Positions 2,865 to 29,151 of a DNA stretch of 29,182 bases are shown one piece after another (positions within the stretch are counted from its first letter, which is position 1; every line of letters begins with the position of its first letter). This DNA comes from a virus (Duplodnaviria > Caudoviricetes). The DNA lies in IMG/VR virus record IMGVR_UViG_3300048576_000406, positions 1 to 29,182 of that record. One strand, given 5' to 3'. Under the pieces are notes generated by a model. The model was not told the DNA's origin and made no database searches. It saw only the letters and a program-made list of their open reading frames with translations. The translations under genes and the position numbers were made by a program.

Positions 2865-3104
2865 TCACAGCCCCTTGGCGTCGACCGCGCTGCGGTCTCC
2901 CAGGTCGGCCAACACGTAGGCGAGCTGCTCGGTGATCCGGCCGAGGTCGCCGGCGTACCCCCAATCGGCGGGCTCGGCTGCCTGGCGCTTTTGGTGGTCG
3001 GCTAGGCGGCTCGCGATGCGCTTCAGCAGGTCCTGGGCTTCGGTGTGCCGTTCGGCGTAGCAGCCTGCGGCGGTCTGCTTGGTGGTCTTGGTGGTGCGTT
3101 GCAT
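2865..3104 (-). CDS. Hypothetical helical phage protein (79 aa; alternative start 3113)
   Basis: First gene of the antisense operon, helical-hairpin pattern with DWGYAGDL turn; no SD, possibly leaderless. Confidence 0.72.
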   Translation of the reverse strand: MQRTTKTTKQTAAGCYAERHTEAQDLLKRIASRLADHQKRQAAEPADWGYAGDLGRITEQLAYVLADLGDRSAVDAKGL

Positions 3105-3110
3105 CGAACA

Positions 3111-3163
3111 CATGAATCGCTTCGGTGCGCCGGAATAGCAAGGGAATCTTCTAGAGAATCTTC
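3111..3163 (-). promoter_or_regulatory. Putative promoter/operator region of the antisense operon
   Basis: Minus-strand TTGCTA (-35-like, 3141-3136) followed 17 nt later by non-canonical GATTCATG. Direct repeat GAATCTTC at 3144-3151 and 3156-3163 in the divergent intergenic gap. Confidence 0.35.
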
Positions 3164-3189
3164 GAGGCGATTGTCAGGCGAAGAAGCCG

Positions 3190-3393
3190 ATGTACACGGA
3201 CCAGCAATTGCAGGCACTACGCGACGCTCTGGCCAACGGGGTGCGCCGCGTCCGGTTCGGTGATCGAGAGATCGAATACCGGACCGTCGAGGAGTTGAAG
3301 GAAGCCATCGCCGCTGCTGAGGCGGATGTGACCAAGAACAGCGGAACGCCGGTGATCCGCCAGATCCGGGTGCAGACACAGAAGGGCTTTTGA
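3190..3393 (+). CDS. Head-tail joining protein, lambda gpW-like
   Basis: 67 aa, YTDQQLQAL..A.A.GVRRVRFGDREIEYRTVEEL motif, immediately upstream of the portal. Confidence 0.88.
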   Translation: MYTDQQLQALRDALANGVRRVRFGDREIEYRTVEELKEAIAAAEADVTKNSGTPVIRQIRVQTQKGF

Positions 3394-20981: not shown

Positions 20982-23900
20982 ATGCCCTCCGAACCGCTTC
21001 ACATGTTCGATCCCCGCAGGACTATTCAACTGCAGGGATTCTCCGGCCGCGCCGCCACCACCACGATCCACGACGCCACCGAGACGGGATTTCAGATCTC
21101 CGGCATCTTTCAAGCCGCCGAGGATTTCGCCAACGTCCAACTCTTCAGCGCGTACGACTACTACAACCACCTGCGCCTGAAGCCGCTGCCCGTGACGGAT
21201 CTCTCTGGCGTCACTCTGCAATTCGACATGCAGTTGCTGCCAGTGAACGGCGAGGAGGGAAACGTCCGGCCGGACTGCGTGAAGTACCCGTCGGTCGGCT
21301 GGGACAAGCTGACCATCACCACTGGCAACGGCGACATCTACGAGGTCCCGTTGATGGCGAACTGCTCGGTGCTCTCGGGCGGCTTCATGGCCGCCTCGTT
21401 TCAGGTCGCCCTCGAGGACAAGAAGGCCGAGGACCTGGATGCGCTCGTCGGTGGGATGACGCCAGCGCTCACCGACGCCGCCTACGTCTACTTTTTGGGC
21501 ACGCGATGGTCGTGCACGTCGGCCGAGGCCATCGCGTTCTGCAACCTCGAAACGCGCCTGCTGAACAACATCGGCGCAGTGGACGCGCCTTCGTGCGAGC
21601 AGGCTATCTGGTGGCAGGACGACCCCAACTTCTACCACTACCTGCTGGTCAACGGCGGCGGTGCTGGCATTCAAGAGGCGGGAGCCACGGATGCCGCCGA
21701 CATCGCGTCCCGCCTGGCGTCGATGGTCGGCATCTCCAGCTACCTCGTCGATTGCAGCGCCTCCGGCAACGTCATCACAGTGAGCCTTGAGGCCGGCGTG
21801 AATGGCCCGGTGCGGGTTTCGACCAACAGCGGTTCCGCGCCGGCGACGCTCACGCGCTTCGTGCCGGGCATCTACACGGCGCAAGTCTCTTCGGCGGCTG
21901 AGATCCGTGCAGGCGACTACGTCGGTGTCGACATCGGCACAGCGCACGATGAAGTCGTCAAGGTCATTTCTGCTGGCGGAGGCAGTTTCACGGCGTACTT
22001 TACCAAACCGCATTACGGCAAGCTCTACAACATCATCTGCCGTGTGCTCCCGCGCGCGCGCCACTTCGGCCGGACGCTCCGCGACCGCATTGTCGACCAC
22101 CCACTACCTGACTATGGCGAACAGCCCGCAAGCCTCGCTGTCGCCGGCTTCGGGACGACCAACACGTCGGCGAAGATCAACCTGGGGCTCTCCGGGCCGA
22201 TGGGCCAATGGGGGCGTGAGGCCAACGGCATCCCGGTGCGCCAGTCCGTGAACCCGGAGAACGCAATCGTGGTCCTTGCGGATGGTGTGACGTCGTCGGC
22301 CAGCATGGTCCAGGGCGCGCGCAACCTTCGGACTTACCGCTTCCAATTCCCGTTCGGCTCCTTGGCGGGATACAAAAACGGCGACCGGCAGTCGCTCGTG
22401 GCCGTTCCGGCGACCGACATCGTCAAGGTGCACCTGACCTTCGCTCCACGCTTTGAGGACGTGGAGTTTGGTCTGGCGAATGGCGGGGTGCTGGCGGAGG
22501 CAGTCGCCGCTTCGTCTGCGGGCACGGAGGAGGAATGGCGCCTCACCAACGCCGAGTCGATGTCCGGCGGCACGAAGTACTACGTCGGAAATGCGACCAC
22601 CGAGGAGCGCATCACCTGCCTCGCCAACTTCGGCTTGGTCATGCCGGATCCTGAAGTGCCAAGCACCTGGTATCACCGCATGTTGGTCCGCCGCGGAGAA
22701 GACTCCTCGGTCCCGCAGGCTTGGAACGTCGGAGCGCCCGTTCAGTGGATCTCGACGATCACGGGAACCCGTTCCGATGTGGAGTGGCAGGTCGCGATCT
22801 CGAACATCACGCTCTCCGGGCCCACGACGCTGAAGGTCGGTGGGCCGAACGAGAACGACCGCCCGGAGGAGGGCAAGGGTGCAACCTATGTCGGGTATTG
22901 GGAAGAGGCGTCCTATGTCGCAGGATGGTGGAGCGGCGGTCACGCGAGACGCTGCGCGCCGTCGTCGGCCACCGATCTCCGCCGAGTCACCGTTCGCTAT
23001 CAGCGCGACGCCGTCCACGATCTCTACGTCGGCACCTGGCTCGGCACGAGCGCAGGCAGGATCCAGGTCTCGATTGACGGCGGCGCACCGCAGGTCTTCG
23101 ATCTCTACTTGAACGACTACAACGGTCTCGCCGCGATGAAGAAGATCGGCTCAAACATCGCCGCTGGACCGCACGTCGTCGAGATAACGGCGCTGTTCGA
23201 CAAGAACCCGGCAAGCACCGGCTACTTCTTCTACTACGACTACCTTTGGCCCTTGGTCCCACAGGATGTGCCGGATGCTCCGGAGGTGTACGAGAACATC
23301 TCGCTCGCGATCGACTTCGACACGGACCATGGCTACAAGAAGCCGCCCGCCTGGCACGTCTGGCACCTCGATAGGCTTGGGTTCCGCGGCCACGCCGACG
23401 TCTACATGGGTGTCTTCTGGAACAACAAGCGGCGGCGCGTCGAAGCGACGTACCCGAACTGCGCCGTGAGCCTCGGCGCCTGGCAGCCGGATGAGCCTCT
23501 GTGGATCAACCTGTCGGGGACAACGCTCTATTTCTCGCCGGGCGCGGGGCTCAGCGAAGGCGACGTTGCCGGCCACCTTCGCGCGATGCTCAACGTGACC
23601 TTCCCCGGCGTTTGGTGCACGAGCTCGGCGGGCGGCATCAACATCCGCGCGCGCGCGCCGGGCTACACGTTCTCCATCTCAACGAGCGCGAACCTCTCCG
23701 TCGCTCATGGCACGCCGAGCCTTTCCACGCCGGGCGCCGAAGGCGACTGGGAGATGATCGACACTATCTCGCCGGTGATGACCCAGGGCGCGCGCAACTG
23801 GATTCGCGACCTGGCATCGCAACTCCACCAAGCGGGCATCCCAGCGAGCTTCGCCTTCTCTATGGAGTGCTACCGGCCTCCGACGGCGATGGCCGCGCGC

Positions 23901-24794
23901 TACTGGGACGGCGCGCCCGTGGATCTTCCCGTGCCCTCCACGCAGATGCACTTCGGCTCGCGCGTCCGGGCGTACCTGAAGCAGATGTACAAGGAGTGCG
24001 CCGATCAGCTCGCCGCCGCCGGGCTGCCGATCGTGCTTCAGTTCGGCGAGACGCAGTGGTGGTACTTCCCGAACGACTCCGGGATGCCCTTCTATGACGA
24101 CGGGACGAAGGCCGACTTCTTGGCCCGCTTCGGCCGCCCCATGCACCGCTTCCTCGCCAATACCGACAATCCCGCCAACGATCAGCTGACCGCCGACTTC
24201 CTGCGCGATCGCATCTGGGAGTACTGCTCCGAAGTCATCGACTATGTGCGCCGTTATCATCCGTCCGCCGTCTTCGAGTGCCTCTGGCCGCTCGACGCCA
24301 ATCAGGGCAAGTCCGCGCCGAACGCCGGCTTCCGCCGCCTGAACATGCACGTCAACCTGCCGGACCAGTGGAAGACCTCCAGCTACGGCGTGAAGTACTT
24401 CCGCGCGGAAGGCTTCGATTACGAAGTACGGCAGAAGAGCGCCGTCCTCATGAAGCAGACGATGCGCTTCCCGCAGGGGCTGGGTCGTCCGGGCGATGAG
24501 TGTATGTACCTGGCGGGGATCTTCGGTACGGCTGACCCGCCATATCTCCGGGCCTACTCGATGTGGAAGCAGACCGACATCGGTTCGCTGTGCTTCTGGG
24601 CTTTCGATCAGTTCTGCCTGAACAGCAGGCCGGTGCCGTTGACGGCGCTCACTGGGAGAGTGCCACAGAGCGCGATCTACCACAAGCCGCGGGCGGTGCG
24701 CGCGGAGCCCGTCGTAATCGCCGTGCCGTTCGCCCCGCCTGCAGACGGGGCCCTCAACCGCTTCCCCTGCAACCGCCGAGGACTCAATGGCTAA
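20982..24794 (+). CDS. Large virion protein with C-terminal glycoside-hydrolase-like TIM-barrel region, 1270 aa
   Basis: Aromatic-rich C-terminal half (DFDTDHGY, FSME, LQFGETQWWYF, MPFYDD) resembles TIM-barrel domains of GTA/siphophage tail proteins; preceded by a CBM-like segment (IQVSIDGG..GPHVVEI). Confidence 0.7.
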   Translation: MPSEPLHMFDPRRTIQLQGFSGRAATTTIHDATETGFQISGIFQAAEDFANVQLFSAYDYYNHLRLKPLPVTDLSGVTLQFDMQLLPVNGEEGNVRPDCVKYPSVGWDKLTITTGNGDIYEVPLMANCSVLSGGFMAASFQVALEDKKAEDLDALVGGMTPALTDAAYVYFLGTRWSCTSAEAIAFCNLETRLLNNIGAVDAPSCEQAIWWQDDPNFYHYLLVNGGGAGIQEAGATDAADIASRLASMVGISSYLVDCSASGNVITVSLEAGVNGPVRVSTNSGSAPATLTRFVPGIYTAQVSSAAEIRAGDYVGVDIGTAHDEVVKVISAGGGSFTAYFTKPHYGKLYNIICRVLPRARHFGRTLRDRIVDHPLPDYGEQPASLAVAGFGTTNTSAKINLGLSGPMGQWGREANGIPVRQSVNPENAIVVLADGVTSSASMVQGARNLRTYRFQFPFGSLAGYKNGDRQSLVAVPATDIVKVHLTFAPRFEDVEFGLANGGVLAEAVAASSAGTEEEWRLTNAESMSGGTKYYVGNATTEERITCLANFGLVMPDPEVPSTWYHRMLVRRGEDSSVPQAWNVGAPVQWISTITGTRSDVEWQVAISNITLSGPTTLKVGGPNENDRPEEGKGATYVGYWEEASYVAGWWSGGHARRCAPSSATDLRRVTVRYQRDAVHDLYVGTWLGTSAGRIQVSIDGGAPQVFDLYLNDYNGLAAMKKIGSNIAAGPHVVEITALFDKNPASTGYFFYYDYLWPLVPQDVPDAPEVYENISLAIDFDTDHGYKKPPAWHVWHLDRLGFRGHADVYMGVFWNNKRRRVEATYPNCAVSLGAWQPDEPLWINLSGTTLYFSPGAGLSEGDVAGHLRAMLNVTFPGVWCTSSAGGINIRARAPGYTFSISTSANLSVAHGTPSLSTPGAEGDWEMIDTISPVMTQGARNWIRDLASQLHQAGIPASFAFSMECYRPPTAMAARYWDGAPVDLPVPSTQMHFGSRVRAYLKQMYKECADQLAAAGLPIVLQFGETQWWYFPNDSGMPFYDDGTKADFLARFGRPMHRFLANTDNPANDQLTADFLRDRIWEYCSEVIDYVRRYHPSAVFECLWPLDANQGKSAPNAGFRRLNMHVNLPDQWKTSSYGVKYFRAEGFDYEVRQKSAVLMKQTMRFPQGLGRPGDECMYLAGIFGTADPPYLRAYSMWKQTDIGSLCFWAFDQFCLNSRPVPLTALTGRVPQSAIYHKPRAVRAEPVVIAVPFAPPADGALNRFPCNRRGLNG

Positions 24795-26655
24795 GTTTCC
24801 AACCGCGTTCGACGACGCATCGAGCCTGTTCGCCCCCGTCGATGCCTTCCAGTCGAAGCCGCTCGAGACCACGGCGACCAATGGCATCGGCGCGGGCGAC
24901 TCGACCATCAGCGTCGAATCCACGTCGGTGGGCTTCGCCGACACCTACGGCATCCTCTCAATCGACGACGAACTGATCGTCTATACGGCCAAGACCGCGA
25001 CCCAGTTCACCGGCTGCATCCGCGGCGCCTTCGGGACCGTTGCCGCCGTTCACCAGACCGGCTCCACGGTCCGGGCCAACATGGTCTCCGGCTTCTTGAC
25101 CGCGCTCCAGTCCGCGGTCCTCGCCATCGAGAACGAAATCGGCACGGCGGCCGCGCGCAACTACGTCCGCGCTGCCGGCGACCAGGTCCTGACCGGCAAC
25201 AAGACGTTTCAGGATGGCGCGCAGTTCGGAACCGGGGAGAAGTCCGGCACGGGCCTCGTCCGCCTACCCAACGCCGGCGCGGTGAAGTGGCGGAAGGCCG
25301 ACGACTCAGGTGACCTCGGGGTGGCTCTGAACACACAGAACCATCTCGCCATGGACGCTATCGTAGACTTCGCGCCCGGGCAGACCTTCGGGACGTTCTC
25401 CTACCCGGACGCCGGCTACGCGAGCAAGGGCATCGTGCAGGTCGATCCGGCCGGCGGCCTGGCCGTCGAGTCAGGTGTACTGTCGCTGCCTGCCTCCGGC
25501 GCCTCGCCGGGCACGTATCCGAAGGTCACGGTGGATGCGAAGGGACGCGTTACGGCGGGTGCCAGCCTCGTGGCGGCCGACCTTCCGGGCCACACCCACA
25601 CTGCCACCGACATCGTGAGCGGCGAACTGCCCCACAAAATCCAGCACAACGGCGCCGATGTTGGAACACGCCGTGCCCTCAACCTCATCGAAGGTTCGCG
25701 GGTGACACTCAGCGCGGCCGACGATCCGACCAACGACCGTGTCAGCGTCGTCGTGAACGCCGCACCGCCCGTCGCCGGCGAGATCACGAACGCCCTCGGC
25801 TATGTCCCGGCGGACTTGGCCGGCGACCACTTCACCGGCCCCATCGACTGCGGCCCGCACCAGACCATCGGCGGCCCGCTGGAGAACATGGCGAAGCACT
25901 CCGAGAACTTCGCCGCGGCGGCCTGGGACAAGAACGGCGGCTCATGCACGGTCACCGCGAACGCCATCATCGCCCCGGACGGCAACCAGACTGCCGATGT
26001 GATCACCGCCGTCTCCACGACGCCTGTCATTCAGCAGCAGGTTGCCGGCCTCGCCGACGGCGGCACCCACACCTTCTACGTCTGGGCCCGCGTCCCCTCC
26101 GGTATGCGCAAAGTCTCGCTGGCGATCGTCAACAACGCCTACGCCGTCTACCTGGCCGGGCCCACGCAGGTGACGCTGACGACCTCTTGGCAGCGATTCA
26201 AGATCACCGGCACCCTTGCGAACGGCCAGGCTGGCCTCTGGATCGTGGTCCGCCAATACGCCGGCAACGGCGACGATTGGACCACCGGCGATATCCACCT
26301 CTGGGGCGCCTGCCTACAACAGGGTGAGGATCCACAGGCCGCCTACGCCCGGACCTGGACTTCGCAGACCCCGCACATCGCCTCCGGGATCGCCGCCGGC
26401 CCAACCATCATGGCTGCGCCCGACTCCACCACCTCCCCCCTCAAGATCCACGGCCCCGGCTCCAACCTCTCCGACAGCATCCTCCTCGAACTCACCGCCA
26501 ACGGGGAACTTACCCTCGCGGGCGGCTCTGGCAGCGGCTACCGCTTTGCTGAACTAGTGAATGCCAGCAATCCTTCGGGATGGTCTGGCTTAATCAGAGT
26601 GAAAAACCCCGCCGGAACGACGGCGGGGTACATTCTGCTCTATTCCAACCCGTGA
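24787..26655 (+). CDS. Tail fibre protein (622 aa)
   Basis: GAGGA RBS; IDDELI.YT..RGAFGT.A..H N-terminus, GTYPKVTVDAKGRVTAG fibre repeat, C-terminal carbohydrate-binding-like domain (APDGNQTAD..LTTSWQRF..WGA). Confidence 0.8.
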   Translation: MAKFPTAFDDASSLFAPVDAFQSKPLETTATNGIGAGDSTISVESTSVGFADTYGILSIDDELIVYTAKTATQFTGCIRGAFGTVAAVHQTGSTVRANMVSGFLTALQSAVLAIENEIGTAAARNYVRAAGDQVLTGNKTFQDGAQFGTGEKSGTGLVRLPNAGAVKWRKADDSGDLGVALNTQNHLAMDAIVDFAPGQTFGTFSYPDAGYASKGIVQVDPAGGLAVESGVLSLPASGASPGTYPKVTVDAKGRVTAGASLVAADLPGHTHTATDIVSGELPHKIQHNGADVGTRRALNLIEGSRVTLSAADDPTNDRVSVVVNAAPPVAGEITNALGYVPADLAGDHFTGPIDCGPHQTIGGPLENMAKHSENFAAAAWDKNGGSCTVTANAIIAPDGNQTADVITAVSTTPVIQQQVAGLADGGTHTFYVWARVPSGMRKVSLAIVNNAYAVYLAGPTQVTLTTSWQRFKITGTLANGQAGLWIVVRQYAGNGDDWTTGDIHLWGACLQQGEDPQAAYARTWTSQTPHIASGIAAGPTIMAAPDSTTSPLKIHGPGSNLSDSILLELTANGELTLAGGSGSGYRFAELVNASNPSGWSGLIRVKNPAGTTAGYILLYSNP

Positions 26656-26676
26656 TGGACAGACACCGGATGGGGA

Positions 26677-26697
26677 TTCGGCCGACTGCGGTCCGAA
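26677..26697. terminator. Possible hairpin between the convergent tail fibre and tyrS genes
   Basis: TTCGG-CCG-actg-CGG-t-CCGAA imperfect inverted repeat; no clean U-tract. Confidence 0.3.
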
Positions 26698-26740
26698 CGT
26701 GTAGCTGTTCTTGTATTCCACCCGCCACACGAATTTCAGC

Positions 26741-28021
26741 TTATTGCCACTCGGCAAGATGCCATGTGCGCTTGCCTTTTCGGATCGCGGCGAACCTCCC
26801 ATGAACGAGCCGTTCAGTCGTGACCGTAGAGCTCGGACCGCAAGTCCCGCCATTCACGGTCACCGCTCCTGCATTGAGAAGTTCCCGAGCCTCTCTTTTG
26901 CTCTCGCACAGAGCCGTCTGACAAAGAAGCTCCACCACTCCGAGTGGCGCTTTCGCAAGCTCGCCCATCGACAGAACAGTTCGCGGAACGCCCGCGAGCG
27001 CTTCCATGAGCATGTTGCCGCGAAGCTCATCGAACCTGCCGTAGAACAGCGCCGCTGCAGCTTCCTCTACTTCGCGCATCTTCACTTCTCCGTGGATGAA
27101 ACTAGTCAGATGGCGCGCCAGCGCGCGCTGCGCTTCGCGGGCTCCCGGATTGGCAGCATGCTCCTGCTCGATTGCCAGGATTTGTGTCACGGACAGGAAT
27201 GTCAGGAACCGGAGCAGCTTTCCGACTTCTGCGTCGCCCACATTCAGGAAAAACTGGTAGAAGGCGTAAGCCGAGGTCAAGTCAGCTGAAAGCCAGACTG
27301 GTCCCGCTTCCGTCTTCCCGAATTTCGTGCCGTCCGCCTTGGTCACCAGCGGGCAGGTCAACCCGTATACTGTTGCGCGAGACGTCCGCCGCACCAGGTC
27401 CACACCTGAAAGAATATTGCTCCATTGGTCAGAACCGCCGAGTTGGACCGTGACGCCATGGGCCTTTTGGAGGTGCTGAAAATCGAGGGCTTGGAATACG
27501 CCATAGAAGAACTCGGTTAACGATAACCCTTGCTGCCGACTTAGCCGGTCTTTAACCGCATCCCGCTGAATCATTTCGTTCACAGAGAAGTGCTTGCCGG
27601 TATCACGAAGTGCCTGTATCAAAGTGACATTCGACAACCAATCGAGATTGTCCACGATGATTGCGTCATTCCTTTTGCCGTCGCCGAATCTCAGCAACCG
27701 CTCGAACAGCGCTCGCTGACGCGTCTTGTTCTTCTCGATGACCGCGAGGTCGAGTAGAGGCCTCTCGGAAGACTTGCCCGAAGGATCACCGATTTGGCCT
27801 GTGGCCCCGCCCAGAACGACAACGGGGGTGTGACCGGCCTGCTGGAAACGCGCTTGGATCAGAACCGGGACGAGATTACCCACCTGGAGCGAAGGACCGG
27901 TAGGATCATATCCGCAGTAGATCGCCCGCGGCATATCGAGGTGTTCTCGCAGACCCTCGATGTCAGTGGACTGGTAGACCAGACCGCGTTCGGTCAGTTC
28001 ATCAAGAATATTTCGCGACAT
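26741..28021 (-). CDS. tyrS: Tyrosine--tRNA ligase, bacterial type, divergent (426 aa from ATG 28021; TTG 28027 alternative)
   Basis: IYCGYDPTGPSLQVGN, GGATGQIGDPSGK, Y..FQALDF, QLGGSDQW, KFGKT and AFYQFF motifs plus a C-terminal S4 domain (SKREARELL..GAVTVNG..RKGK); GAAAGGA RBS. Confidence 0.96.
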   Translation of the reverse strand: MSRNILDELTERGLVYQSTDIEGLREHLDMPRAIYCGYDPTGPSLQVGNLVPVLIQARFQQAGHTPVVVLGGATGQIGDPSGKSSERPLLDLAVIEKNKTRQRALFERLLRFGDGKRNDAIIVDNLDWLSNVTLIQALRDTGKHFSVNEMIQRDAVKDRLSRQQGLSLTEFFYGVFQALDFQHLQKAHGVTVQLGGSDQWSNILSGVDLVRRTSRATVYGLTCPLVTKADGTKFGKTEAGPVWLSADLTSAYAFYQFFLNVGDAEVGKLLRFLTFLSVTQILAIEQEHAANPGAREAQRALARHLTSFIHGEVKMREVEEAAAALFYGRFDELRGNMLMEALAGVPRTVLSMGELAKAPLGVVELLCQTALCESKREARELLNAGAVTVNGGTCGPSSTVTTERLVHGRFAAIRKGKRTWHLAEWQ

Positions 28022-28048
28022 TTTCAAGTGCTTCCTTTCCCAAGAATT

Positions 28049-28135
28049 TGGTGGGCACGGAAGGATTCGAACCTTCGAAGGCATGATGCCGGCGGATTTA
28101 CAGTCCGCGCCGTTGTCCACTTCGGTTACGTGCCC
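28049..28135 (-). tRNA. tRNA-Tyr (anticodon GTA), 87 nt, CCA encoded
   Basis: GGGCACG/CGTGCCC acceptor stem + ACCA; D stem CCG/CGG; anticodon arm GCGGA-CTGTAAA-TCCGC (anticodon 28101-28099); long variable arm GGCA-TCA-TGCC; T arm GAAGG-TTCGAAT-CCTTC. Confidence 0.96.
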
Positions 28136-28146
28136 GAAAACTCCTA

Positions 28147-29151
28147 TCACGATCGAGTGGCGATTTTCGCGAGAGACTCGGCCTTCTGAAATACGTTGTC
28201 GCCTTTGAGCTGGCCGAAGTTATTCTCATAAGCATCCGTGATAAGGCTTACCCGGGATGCCAGACTTCGCACGGCTTTGGCAGAACGTCTTGCTTCCGAG
28301 ACTTGGCCCTCATACTCAAGGGTCGCGTTCGGCCCCGTCAGCATGAAACGATCTTCTGGCGCGGCGATTTCCGTATATGGCACAGCTTTGGGCCGATCGC
28401 CGCGTAGTGTGAAGCCGGGGCGCGTATAGATCCCGCCGAACTTGGTCTGCAACTGACGTGCACGCAAATCAGTGGCCGGCTCGTGGAAGCGTCCTTCATC
28501 CACGGAGGGCGTCGGCGATGTTGACCAACCCAGCTTCAGGCAGTTGTTCGAAGCCATGTAGGCGCTGTCGGCCATGCCCCGCAGCAAATACGGCGGCAGG
28601 CCGGGCTCCAGGTTCCGCTCCCAGCCCTGCGCGAGTGCGTGATATTCCTCGAACAAGGGCTGGCCGCTCAGCGTCGAAGCCAGGAACACGTGGCATCTGA
28701 CGCCGAAGTTGTTGAAGATCTTCTTCAGGTCGCGCATGAGTCGTTCAGCTCTGAGTTGAACATTGCATTCATCCCCCCCAGTCGTGAGAGCATGCGCGTC
28801 AGCGATCAGCAAGTCGGTTTCGCATCGGAGTTGGCGGCCAAGGACCGCCATCCCGAGGATCATCTCAAGCGCGTCGAACGGGAGTCCGTTGTCGGACATA
28901 CAGCCGAATCCCGCCCATACGCTTTTCCAGCGGTGAGGCGCTGTGATAGGAGGAACTTCGGCGTGAAAAATCGGTGAGGAACTCTGCAGTTCCCCAAAGA
29001 TCGGCTGGCCGAAGGAGTCCTCGACGAGGGGTTCCGAATACCAGTCCGGATCGGACGCAGGCGGGTTCGTTTCGTTGGGCTTGCCGGTCGTGCGCTCATC
29101 TTCGCGCTCTTCGACTGCGGCTGGATACGCAAGGTCTTTCGCGGAGTTCAT
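28147..29151 (-). CDS. Uncharacterised protein with class Ic aminoacyl-tRNA synthetase-like Rossmann core (no HIGH/KMSKS); start uncertain
   Basis: 334-aa ORF ending in tandem TGA TAG. Segments VWAGFG, LLIADAHA, YLLRGMADSAYM and LKLGWS are colinear with TyrRS/TrpRS core motifs. The acidic, Pro-rich N-terminal 70 aa look disordered. Confidence 0.75.
   Translation of the reverse strand: MNSAKDLAYPAAVEEREDERTTGKPNETNPPASDPDWYSEPLVEDSFGQPIFGELQSSSPIFHAEVPPITAPHRWKSVWAGFGCMSDNGLPFDALEMILGMAVLGRQLRCETDLLIADAHALTTGGDECNVQLRAERLMRDLKKIFNNFGVRCHVFLASTLSGQPLFEEYHALAQGWERNLEPGLPPYLLRGMADSAYMASNNCLKLGWSTSPTPSVDEGRFHEPATDLRARQLQTKFGGIYTRPGFTLRGDRPKAVPYTEIAAPEDRFMLTGPNATLEYEGQVSEARRSAKAVRSLASRVSLITDAYENNFGQLKGDNVFQKAESLAKIATRS

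Follow-up and report, generated by a model that had tools for sequence, protein, structure and literature searches.

The virus record IMGVR_UViG_3300048576_000406 of IMG/VR, a linear sequence of 29,182 bases that CheckV estimates to be approximately 50% complete and that we call the window in its entirety, carries a cassette of three minus-strand elements behind its tail-fibre gene. These are a gene for a 334-residue protein (ORF334; 28147-29151), a tRNA-Tyr with the anticodon GUA (28049-28135) and tyrS, a gene for tyrosyl-tRNA synthetase (TyrRS) with its ATG at 28021 and its stop at 26741 (26741-28021). ORF334 represents an unannotated family with a predicted TyrRS fold and a putative tyrosine pocket but without the motifs for ATP, whose connection with TyrRS shows in gene order and in five fusion proteins. 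We favour, at a probability of roughly 40%, the reading that the cassette is accessory and mobile, and that its non-activating TyrRS paralogue would divert the tyrosyl group of Tyr-tRNA furnished by TyrRS, whether or not a tRNA gene is part of the module.

A first-pass annotation of this DNA had described the three elements as packed into one unit, convergent on the tail-fibre gene and richer in AT than the phage genes, and these descriptions held. The list of open reading frames (ORFs), ARAGORN and Rfam (RF00005) placed the elements at the coordinates given above, with 11 nt between the stop codon of ORF334 and the 5' end of the tRNA, and 27 nt between the CCA of the tRNA and the ATG of tyrS. 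The cassette converges with the tail-fibre gene (24787-26655, plus strand). Its GC content was 0.56-0.59, compared to 0.62-0.68 for the phage genes, and GC at third codon positions (GC3) was 0.65-0.69, compared to 0.70-0.90. Eight of the nine Tyr codons in ORF334 were TAT, whereas the phage genes favour TAC.

ORF334 and the adjacent TyrRS

ORF334 had no match in Pfam (E 0.1), NCBIfam, PHROG or PADLOC, the last of which returned no match for any of the six proteins examined, and it did not match PF00579, TIGR00234 or PRK08560 at E 0.1. A word-based search retrieved 16 relatives only, and a HMMER scan with a profile of those 16 gave 422 cluster representatives (50% identity) at E <= 0.001, and 308 at 1e-10. 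Members of the family came from bacteria and from at least one Asgard archaeal metagenome-assembled genome (MAG), one cluster having a Promethearchaeota member. When one genome from each of 185,579 species was searched, ORF334 had no close relative and only three distant matches. Scans of metagenome contigs with the ORF334 alignment, and of viral contigs with the same alignment, P0002, P0010 or the type-B alignment, yielded no relative, and at most 0.20 of the words sought was present in any sequencing run. No TyrRS-like family of this kind was found in the part of the open-access literature that the search covered. We regard the ORF334 family as a new, unannotated protein family.

An AlphaFold2 (AF2) model of ORF334 built on an alignment of 112 family sequences reached a pLDDT of 88.8 and a pTM of 0.83, with disorder in residues 1-40 only; a single-sequence model (pLDDT 38.9) was discarded in its favour. 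Residues 41-334 of the model superimposed on the TyrRS of Aeropyrum pernix (2cya_A) with a Z score of 20.1 and a root-mean-square deviation of 3.2 over 256 aligned residues. Mimivirus TyrRS followed with Z 18.5, and tryptophanyl-tRNA synthetases (TrpRSs) reached Z values of up to 16.7. All rows shown by Foldseek were TyrRSs or engineered derivatives of them, with M. jannaschii TyrRS at E ~1e-7. ORF334 is therefore predicted to have the full TyrRS fold of archaeal/eukaryal type, comprising a Rossmann catalytic domain and a helical C-terminal domain. The earlier description of ORF334 as similar to an aminoacyl-tRNA synthetase (aaRS) was thus upheld by fold (Z 20.1 to TyrRS) but not by any family model. 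At the level of profiles, that of the family reached yeast TyrRS at E 4.6e-4, and hhalign matched it to the bacterial TyrRS profile with 89% probability (E 2.4e-6); comparison with a single sequence, the archaeal-type TyrRS half of the fusion P0361, was weak (probability 5.7).

Cyclodipeptide synthases (CDPSs) are derived from class Ic aaRSs, have lost HIGH and KMSKS while keeping the amino-acid pocket, and accept aminoacyl-tRNA. The ORF334 model shares the Rossmann core with CDPSs (9j61, 6ztu, 2x9q, 6y4b; Z 8.1-11.9), the best of these superpositions (Z 9.7-11.9) covering approximately residues 45-250. Unlike a CDPS, which consists of one Rossmann-type domain of about 220-290 residues, ORF334 keeps the C-terminal domain, and its model lies much nearer to true TyrRS (Z 20.1) over residues 41-334, suggesting that CDPSs are not its closest relatives in fold. 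The Pfam model for CDPSs (PF16715) did not match ORF334 at E 0.1, nor any of 21 unfused relatives at E 0.01, and we know of no CDPS genes that travel with TyrRS. CDPSs employ two aminoacyl-tRNAs and have a catalytic Ser after strand 1. Position 86 of ORF334 is Ser in 50 and Thr in 37 of the 112 members, and its match to that Ser is only putative. ESM Atlas leads to 'NurA', DIT1_PvcA and CDPS (0.91-0.93) were set aside, being chance-prone scores that were not confirmed by fold searches.

In one profile alignment, from which all of the residue equivalences are taken, D118, Y188 and D195 of ORF334 corresponded to D79, Y173 and D180 of TyrRS, which we take to be residues contacting tyrosine. These were conserved in 109, 112 and 107 of the 112 members, respectively, and position 79, the equivalent of TyrRS Y35, was F, Y or W in 92. 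At the position of the HIGH motif ORF334 has L-P91-F-D93, with P91 present in all members and D93 in 107, and a KMSKS-like motif (K-[MFIL]-[SG]-[KSA]-[ST]) was found in none of the 112. Eleven residues were invariant across the family (G81, G83, P91, Y188, K206, W209, E224, G246, P258, Y259 and R268). By this pattern, ORF334 resembles a protein able to hold a tyrosyl group, and possibly tRNA-Tyr, while presumably no longer activating tyrosine with ATP.

The tyrS product is 426 residues long and scored 354.5 bits with TIGR00234 (curated cut-off 113.8). It contains the catalytic domain (PF00579, 5.3e-68), the SYY C-terminal domain (PF22421, 8.1e-13) and, also towards the C-terminus, an S4-like tRNA-binding domain (PF01479, 2.2e-6), and it matched phrog_9270 in PHROG. 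The ATG at 28021 coincided with the start site in all 21 aligned homologues. We therefore predict a complete, canonical TyrRS of bacterial type. At the HIGH position it has QVGN, and a KFGKT loop is present. Among 22 aligned TyrRSs this position read [QT]-[IVL]-G-N in 20 and T-I-G-H in two, so that QVGN looks typical of the clade; inactivation of tyrS through QVGN was considered and set aside as unlikely, given that the first His of HIGH was missing in 22/22. The residues Y35, D79, Y173, Q177 and D180, presumably the tyrosine-binding positions, and K233, F234, G235 and K236, which we take to be the KMSKS-type loop, were invariant in the same alignment, and there was no sign in it that the enzyme might be disabled or re-specified.

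The tRNA (anticodon GTA in the ARAGORN output) scored 51.2 bits with the Rfam tRNA model, compared to a gathering score of 29. Its predicted cloverleaf is of the bacterial type, the variable arm being long; it has G1-C72 and A73, its CCA is part of the gene, and bases 15-87 share 82% identity with E. coli tRNA-Tyr. As judged by these features, it is a tRNA-Tyr of the canonical elongator type. Its possible role as an attachment (att) site was rejected: ORF334 and tyrS belong together, as fusions of the two show, and flank the tRNA on either side.

Association of the ORF334 family with TyrRS

The first-pass annotation had proposed to test whether a tRNA and a matching aaRS recur beside homologues of ORF334. 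Linkage was scored, indirectly, where the longest contigs of both proteins had an identical base count, and partners were sought among the best 120 TyrRS matches only; many contigs were too small for both genes. Eight pairs emerged, five from the 15 word-search relatives other than the window and three from six further unfused proteins. The former were P0002 with TyrRS P0018 (contig of 22353 bases; TyrRS 83% identical to that of the window), P0004 with P0020 (4632; 79%), P0007 with P0021 (3449; 77%), P0006 with P0024 (5154; 68%) and P0015 with P0027 (39438; 58%), and the latter P0259 with P0019 (87929; 80%), P0257 with P0028 (5464; 57%) and P0260 with P0035 (21689; 53%). Linkage was seen directly at locus L006, a metagenome contig of 5.3 kb on which the stop codon of an ORF334-like gene (33% identity) overlaps the ATG of a TyrRS gene, whose product is identical to P0019 and 80% identical to the window tyrS.

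Five proteins (P0274, P0034, P0329, P0354 and P0361) were fusions of an ORF334-family member with a TyrRS. Both domain orders were seen: the paralogue precedes TyrRS in P0274 and P0034 and follows it in P0354. P0361 joins the paralogue to an archaeal-type TyrRS, and in every fusion the aaRS part was a TyrRS according to NCBIfam. Linkage to an aaRS was therefore found, in eight contig matches, at L006 and in the fusions. The amino acid of the partner, whose co-variation was also to be tested, did not co-vary among homologues; it was always tyrosine. A complex prediction for TyrRS and residues 40-334 of ORF334 scored 0.00, which gives no verdict either way.

A quick tree of 121 TyrRS rows, with SH-aLRT values as its only support, placed the window tyrS in a clade of 21 rows (SH-aLRT 100), made up of the window, eight linked TyrRSs, two fused TyrRSs and ten for which no partner was seen, several of these ten lying on contigs of 1.8-5.2 kb. 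The enzyme had been called divergent; it does belong to a separate clade, but it is otherwise a full canonical TyrRS. The TyrRSs of the fusions P0329 and P0354 fell far outside the clade on long branches, and the association of TyrRS with the paralogue therefore appears to have arisen more than once. The family hidden Markov model detected no member in the flanks examined, which were those of 79 further metagenomic and 71 viral TyrRS loci and of 20 tail-fibre loci. Taken together, the sequences suggest that the ORF334 family is linked to TyrRS repeatedly, yet not universally.

Because L006 has the pair without a tRNA, the conserved core would be the ORF334-TyrRS pair, with the tRNA an optional addition in the subtype represented by the window. 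The first-pass annotation had described the triad as a self-contained unit; to judge by L006 and by the Myxococcota members described below, the triad is not what is conserved. A diverged tail-fibre gene (60-72% identity) lies near the pair at L006 with two extra genes in between, an arrangement that resembles the mosaic typical of phage cargo. These two are a gene at 2202-2957, after tyrS and on the same strand, for a 251-residue CHAP-domain protein with an N-terminus that appears hydrophobic by eye, and an ORF of 117 residues at 3017-3370, which starts in an ATGA overlap with the tail-fibre stop codon.

Other fused forms were also observed in the family. P0333 carries an N-terminal GNAT Acetyltransf_6 domain instead of TyrRS, P0372 is a fused form with a weak SH3_3 match, and P0366 and P0364 have long extensions with no match in Pfam or the PDB. 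A PDB sequence search with the fused forms P0366 and P0372 gave no match.

Proposed function and alternatives

We propose that an Acidobacteriota phage carries the cassette as cargo in the variable slot after its tail-fibre gene, where the intact TyrRS, together with tRNA-Tyr where present, would make Tyr-tRNATyr independently of the host. The C-terminal domain of archaeal TyrRS reads the anticodon. From the sequences and the model, we infer that ORF334 would be supplied with this Tyr-tRNA, bind its tyrosyl end and perhaps, through the C-terminal domain, its anticodon, and transfer or otherwise consume the tyrosyl group outside translation. In a temperate phage, an envelope or small-molecule target might then lead to lysogenic conversion or exclusion. 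Gene neighbours, peptidoglycan-acting ones included, give a weak hint of a cell-envelope or small-molecule acceptor, namely the CHAP-domain protein at L006 and, in Myxococcota, genes for L,D-transpeptidase, sulfotransferase and major facilitator superfamily (MFS) proteins. The Myxococcota family members (L106-L124, L003 and L004) adjoin genes for a sulfotransferase, adenosine phosphosulfate (APS) kinase, L,D-transpeptidase (YkuD) and MFS transporters, and this branch suggests an envelope-linked or sulfated tyrosine-derived product. A bolder version, which we put forward as doubtful, is that the family is a second independent TyrRS-derived lineage dependent on aminoacyl-tRNA, after the CDPSs. 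On this view its members would be tyrosyl transferases specific for tRNA-Tyr, which have kept the anticodon-reading domain and co-evolve or fuse with a TyrRS of their own; temperate phages would move them along with a private tRNA-Tyr, and in the lysogen they would tyrosylate an envelope or small-molecule target.

The nearest parallel is LysX of Mycobacterium tuberculosis, in which LysRS is fused to lysyl-phosphatidylglycerol synthase. Like LysX, the module would couple a dedicated aaRS physically to a non-translational consumer, as in the five fusions P0274, P0329, P0354, P0361 and P0034. Unlike LysX, whose transferase has the MprF-type fold, the putative consumer here has a predicted TyrRS fold, the amino acid is tyrosine, and the genes are split and borne by a phage along with a tRNA. 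The jumbo phages GAP32 and CBB also encode a bacterial-type TyrRS (phrog_9270); these enzymes are only 36-37% identical to the window tyrS, an ORF334-family gene was present at none of the 71 viral TyrRS loci in the flanks examined, and the window phage is not a jumbo phage. VlmL, MupM, AgnB2 and the tyrS-like gene of the Enterococcus tyramine cluster (PMC3656215) are likewise extra synthetases outside the housekeeping locus. None of them is known to have a motif-less paralogue of itself as a partner, or to occupy a cargo slot of a phage. By analogy, the module may be regarded as a new family with a familiar logic, that of LysX and CDPS. It adds a compact, self-sufficient unit of synthetase, tRNA and consumer to the cargo repertoire of phages, and poses a concrete biochemical question, namely the fate of Tyr-tRNATyr outside the ribosome. 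Should the paralogue be an enzyme, it would link the translation apparatus in a new way to metabolism or to modification of the cell surface; should it serve as decoy or regulator, phages would have a new means of acting on Tyr decoding, which known defences already target.

Several observations weigh against this proposal of a cargo module that diverts Tyr-tRNA. The tRNA is missing at L006 and is thus not kept with the pair, and contig matches with a TyrRS were found for 0/10 and 0/3 of further sets of unfused family representatives. P0009 and P0010, on contigs of 23.9 kb and 32.7 kb, had no TyrRS partner among the matches listed. In Myxococcota, 19 of 401 genomes had one ORF334-family member each (G197/L114 unpublished); none of these 19 had a TyrRS gene within 1.5 kb, and in all five such genomes checked there was a single, distant tyrS. 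The assignment of the tyrosine pocket depends on a single profile alignment. Lastly, in 6 of 20 related viral records (L087, L089, L091, L094, L096 and L097) the sequence finishes 3 nt past the tail-fibre stop, as though a pipeline had taken what follows for host DNA, and the window itself ends 31 nt upstream of ORF334, so that phage genes past the cassette are not in view.

Counter-defence is an unlikely alternative, in which the phage tRNA-Tyr and TyrRS keep Tyr codons readable and ORF334 acts as a decoy or shield for tRNA-Tyr. In its favour, tRNA-Tyr is a known target of defence: PtuAB of Retron-Eco7 is reported to degrade tRNA-Tyr and the tRNA-Tyr of T5-family phages to rescue the phage (PMC11555353, PMC12673091), and Septu to cleave the variable loop of tRNA-Tyr (PMC13096335). 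The window phage encodes a canonical tRNA-Tyr, of elongator type, as do phages that overcome these systems (PMC11555353, PMC13096335), and defence-like genes (E1-E2-JAB-patatin, HipA-like kinase, HerA) occupy the same slot in its relatives. Unlike the tRNAs of those phages, however, the tRNA is the dispensable part of this module, since the phage locus L006 retains the pair without it. Anti-retron and anti-Septu phages are not known to combine their tRNA-Tyr with a TyrRS or with a paralogue of one. In addition, fusions occur in proteins of cellular origin, including one with an archaeal-type TyrRS, and one family cluster has a Promethearchaeota member. The 11 invariant, catalytic-looking residues exceed what a decoy would need, and convergence on the late genes together with a terminator-like site of its own would be the usual layout of cargo expressed in lysogeny.

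It is improbable that ORF334 is instead a pseudo-enzyme, a TyrRS paralogue devoid of catalysis whose role would be to sense tyrosine or tRNA-Tyr and to act as a regulator or partner of the neighbouring TyrRS, in the manner of HisZ and HisG. HisZ is a HisRS paralogue that serves as the regulatory subunit of ATP phosphoribosyltransferase, does not aminoacylate and has kept its amino-acid site. ORF334 resembles it as an aaRS paralogue in which both ATP motifs appear lost and the tyrosine pocket kept, and the tight linkage to, and fusion with, TyrRS would suit such a role. HisZ, however, partners HisG and not its parent synthetase, whereas ORF334 is linked to TyrRS and has many invariant polar residues. 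Conservation of E224, K206, R268, Y259 and W209 in 112/112 members suggests chemistry over mere binding. The Myxococcota members lie far from tyrS and beside sulfotransferase, YkuD and MFS genes, and one member is fused to GNAT Acetyltransf_6 and not to TyrRS; these features also count against such a role.

A variable slot downstream of the tail fibre

The window and 20 related viral records share homology up to the tail-fibre stop codon and not beyond, and the DNA past this point differs in all 12 relatives that continue, in line with the earlier proposal of an accessory cassette in the slot after the tail fibre. Among these 12, the slot was occupied by a P-type ATPase; by a minus-strand gene (L093, 9956-13987) for a 1,343-residue protein with Prok-E2_A, ThiF (E1), Prok-JAB and patatin domains; and, in L098, L101, L102, L103 and L105, by an SDH-type ClpP-like protease, a HipA-like kinase, QueC, a Zn-ribbon/TPR protein together with an amidohydrolase and a HerA-like protein, and an integrase. 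None of the 12 had a tRNA or a TyrRS in the slot. The 1,343-residue protein, lying directly behind the tail-fibre gene, looks like the product of a defence gene in which ubiquitin-like conjugation and phospholipase functions are fused. Phage-type genes were present past the slot in three relatives: replication-type genes directly behind the tail-fibre gene in L095, another structural-type gene in L099, and in L092 a low-GC insert of two genes between the tail-fibre gene and another fibre gene with Ig domains. The slot can therefore be internal to a phage.

In the window, the left edge of the slot is a spacer of 85 nt (26656-26740) between the convergent stop codons of the tail-fibre gene and tyrS. 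A strong terminator-like hairpin on the minus strand (26606-26629), with nine pairs, eight of them G-C, followed by TTTTT, was found 112 nt past the tyrS stop, within the final codons of the tail-fibre gene. The hairpin scan returned seven sites compared to 2.7 expected, so that any single site is weak evidence. The 70-nt fold at this site had an energy of -29.7 kcal/mol; in 17 relatives the values ranged from -13.4 to -26.4, and a five-pair version of the hairpin, present in some of them, was the most that any relative had. A variable place, a distinct composition and a terminator-like site are what would be expected of variable-slot cargo, and the cassette is probably cargo within the phage.

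We consider it improbable that the prophage ends at the tail-fibre stop and that the cassette is a host tyrS locus, a flank or an adjacent island by attR. Such an ending would account for the exact stop of homology to all relatives, for the fall of GC and GC3 in the same place, and for host-looking downstream genes in some relatives (P-type ATPase, QueC). The six records that end 3 nt past the stop hardly do so by chance, and probably reflect trimming of proviruses at a gene boundary. One TyrRS of the window clade is, moreover, labelled as coming from a Gemmataceae MAG. On the other hand, the homologues of the tail-fibre protein that have an organism name were, among the matches listed, all from Acidobacteriota (11/11; Bryobacteraceae, Paludibaculum fermentans), and no Acidobacteriota TyrRS was present among the best 120 matches to tyrS. 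The named TyrRS matches within those 120 came from Planctomycetota (4) and Myxococcota (7) at 51-57% identity, none from a named genome being closer, and the window tyrS is for these reasons unlikely to be the host housekeeping copy. The case that would have undone the first-pass annotation, a sole tyrS in a conserved chromosomal context, is thus unlikely as well. The scarcity of ORF334 relatives across the 185,579 species, the mosaic at L006, where a diverged tail fibre lies by the same pair with an ORF334 partner only 33% identical, and the phage-type genes past the slot in L092, L095 and L099 also argue against a host flank. A chromosomal cassette would still be an accessory second tyrS, and the module is accessory whether it is cargo or flank. 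In X1 and X2, pieces over tyrS, both tRNA junctions and ORF334 were 97-98% alike and phage structural pieces 85-91%; X1-X4 gave short contigs of low depth, and this contrast, which fits a mobile cassette as well as host DNA, was used for neither.

A toxin-antidote or abortive-infection pair, in which ORF334 would disable Tyr decoding through sequestration of tRNA-Tyr or deacylation of Tyr-tRNA and the extra TyrRS and tRNA would act as a buffer until infection, might draw on the defence-rich slot, on a core of two genes whose stop and start codons overlap in L006 and on an ATP-independent TyrRS fold that could still bind Tyr-tRNA, but it is very improbable in view of the missing PADLOC match, the fusion of 'toxin' and 'antidote' in both orders, which is unusual for such pairs, and the Myxococcota members without a dedicated partner.

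The remainder of the window (bases 1-26655) is a plus-strand phage module by its Pfam and PHROG matches, with genes for portal, head protease, major head protein and tail proteins. It begins with an open-ended ORF (1-1632) for a ParB-like nuclease domain fused to a DNA methyltransferase (phrog_498, 1.2e-162; phrog_15396), and a terminase large subunit was not recognised between this ORF and the portal gene at 3390. Two proteins of approximately 1,270-1,285 residues are also encoded, of which the 1,270-residue protein (20982-24794) contains a 'non-contractile tail sheath protein TIM barrel' domain (PF23845, residues 926-1184). The tail-fibre/spike gene that follows encodes 622 residues with a CBM_4_9-type C-terminal part and PHROG tail matches; it is context and boundary, and lies outside the module. 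Its product had at least 120 homologues, 74-90% identical among the matches listed and nearly all 621-623 residues long, and the contigs that encode them include complete genomes of Paludibaculum fermentans and Bryobacteraceae. So conserved and widespread a tail-fibre/spike protein is unusual, and suggests that Acidobacteriota harbour either a very common prophage lineage or an element that has become domesticated.

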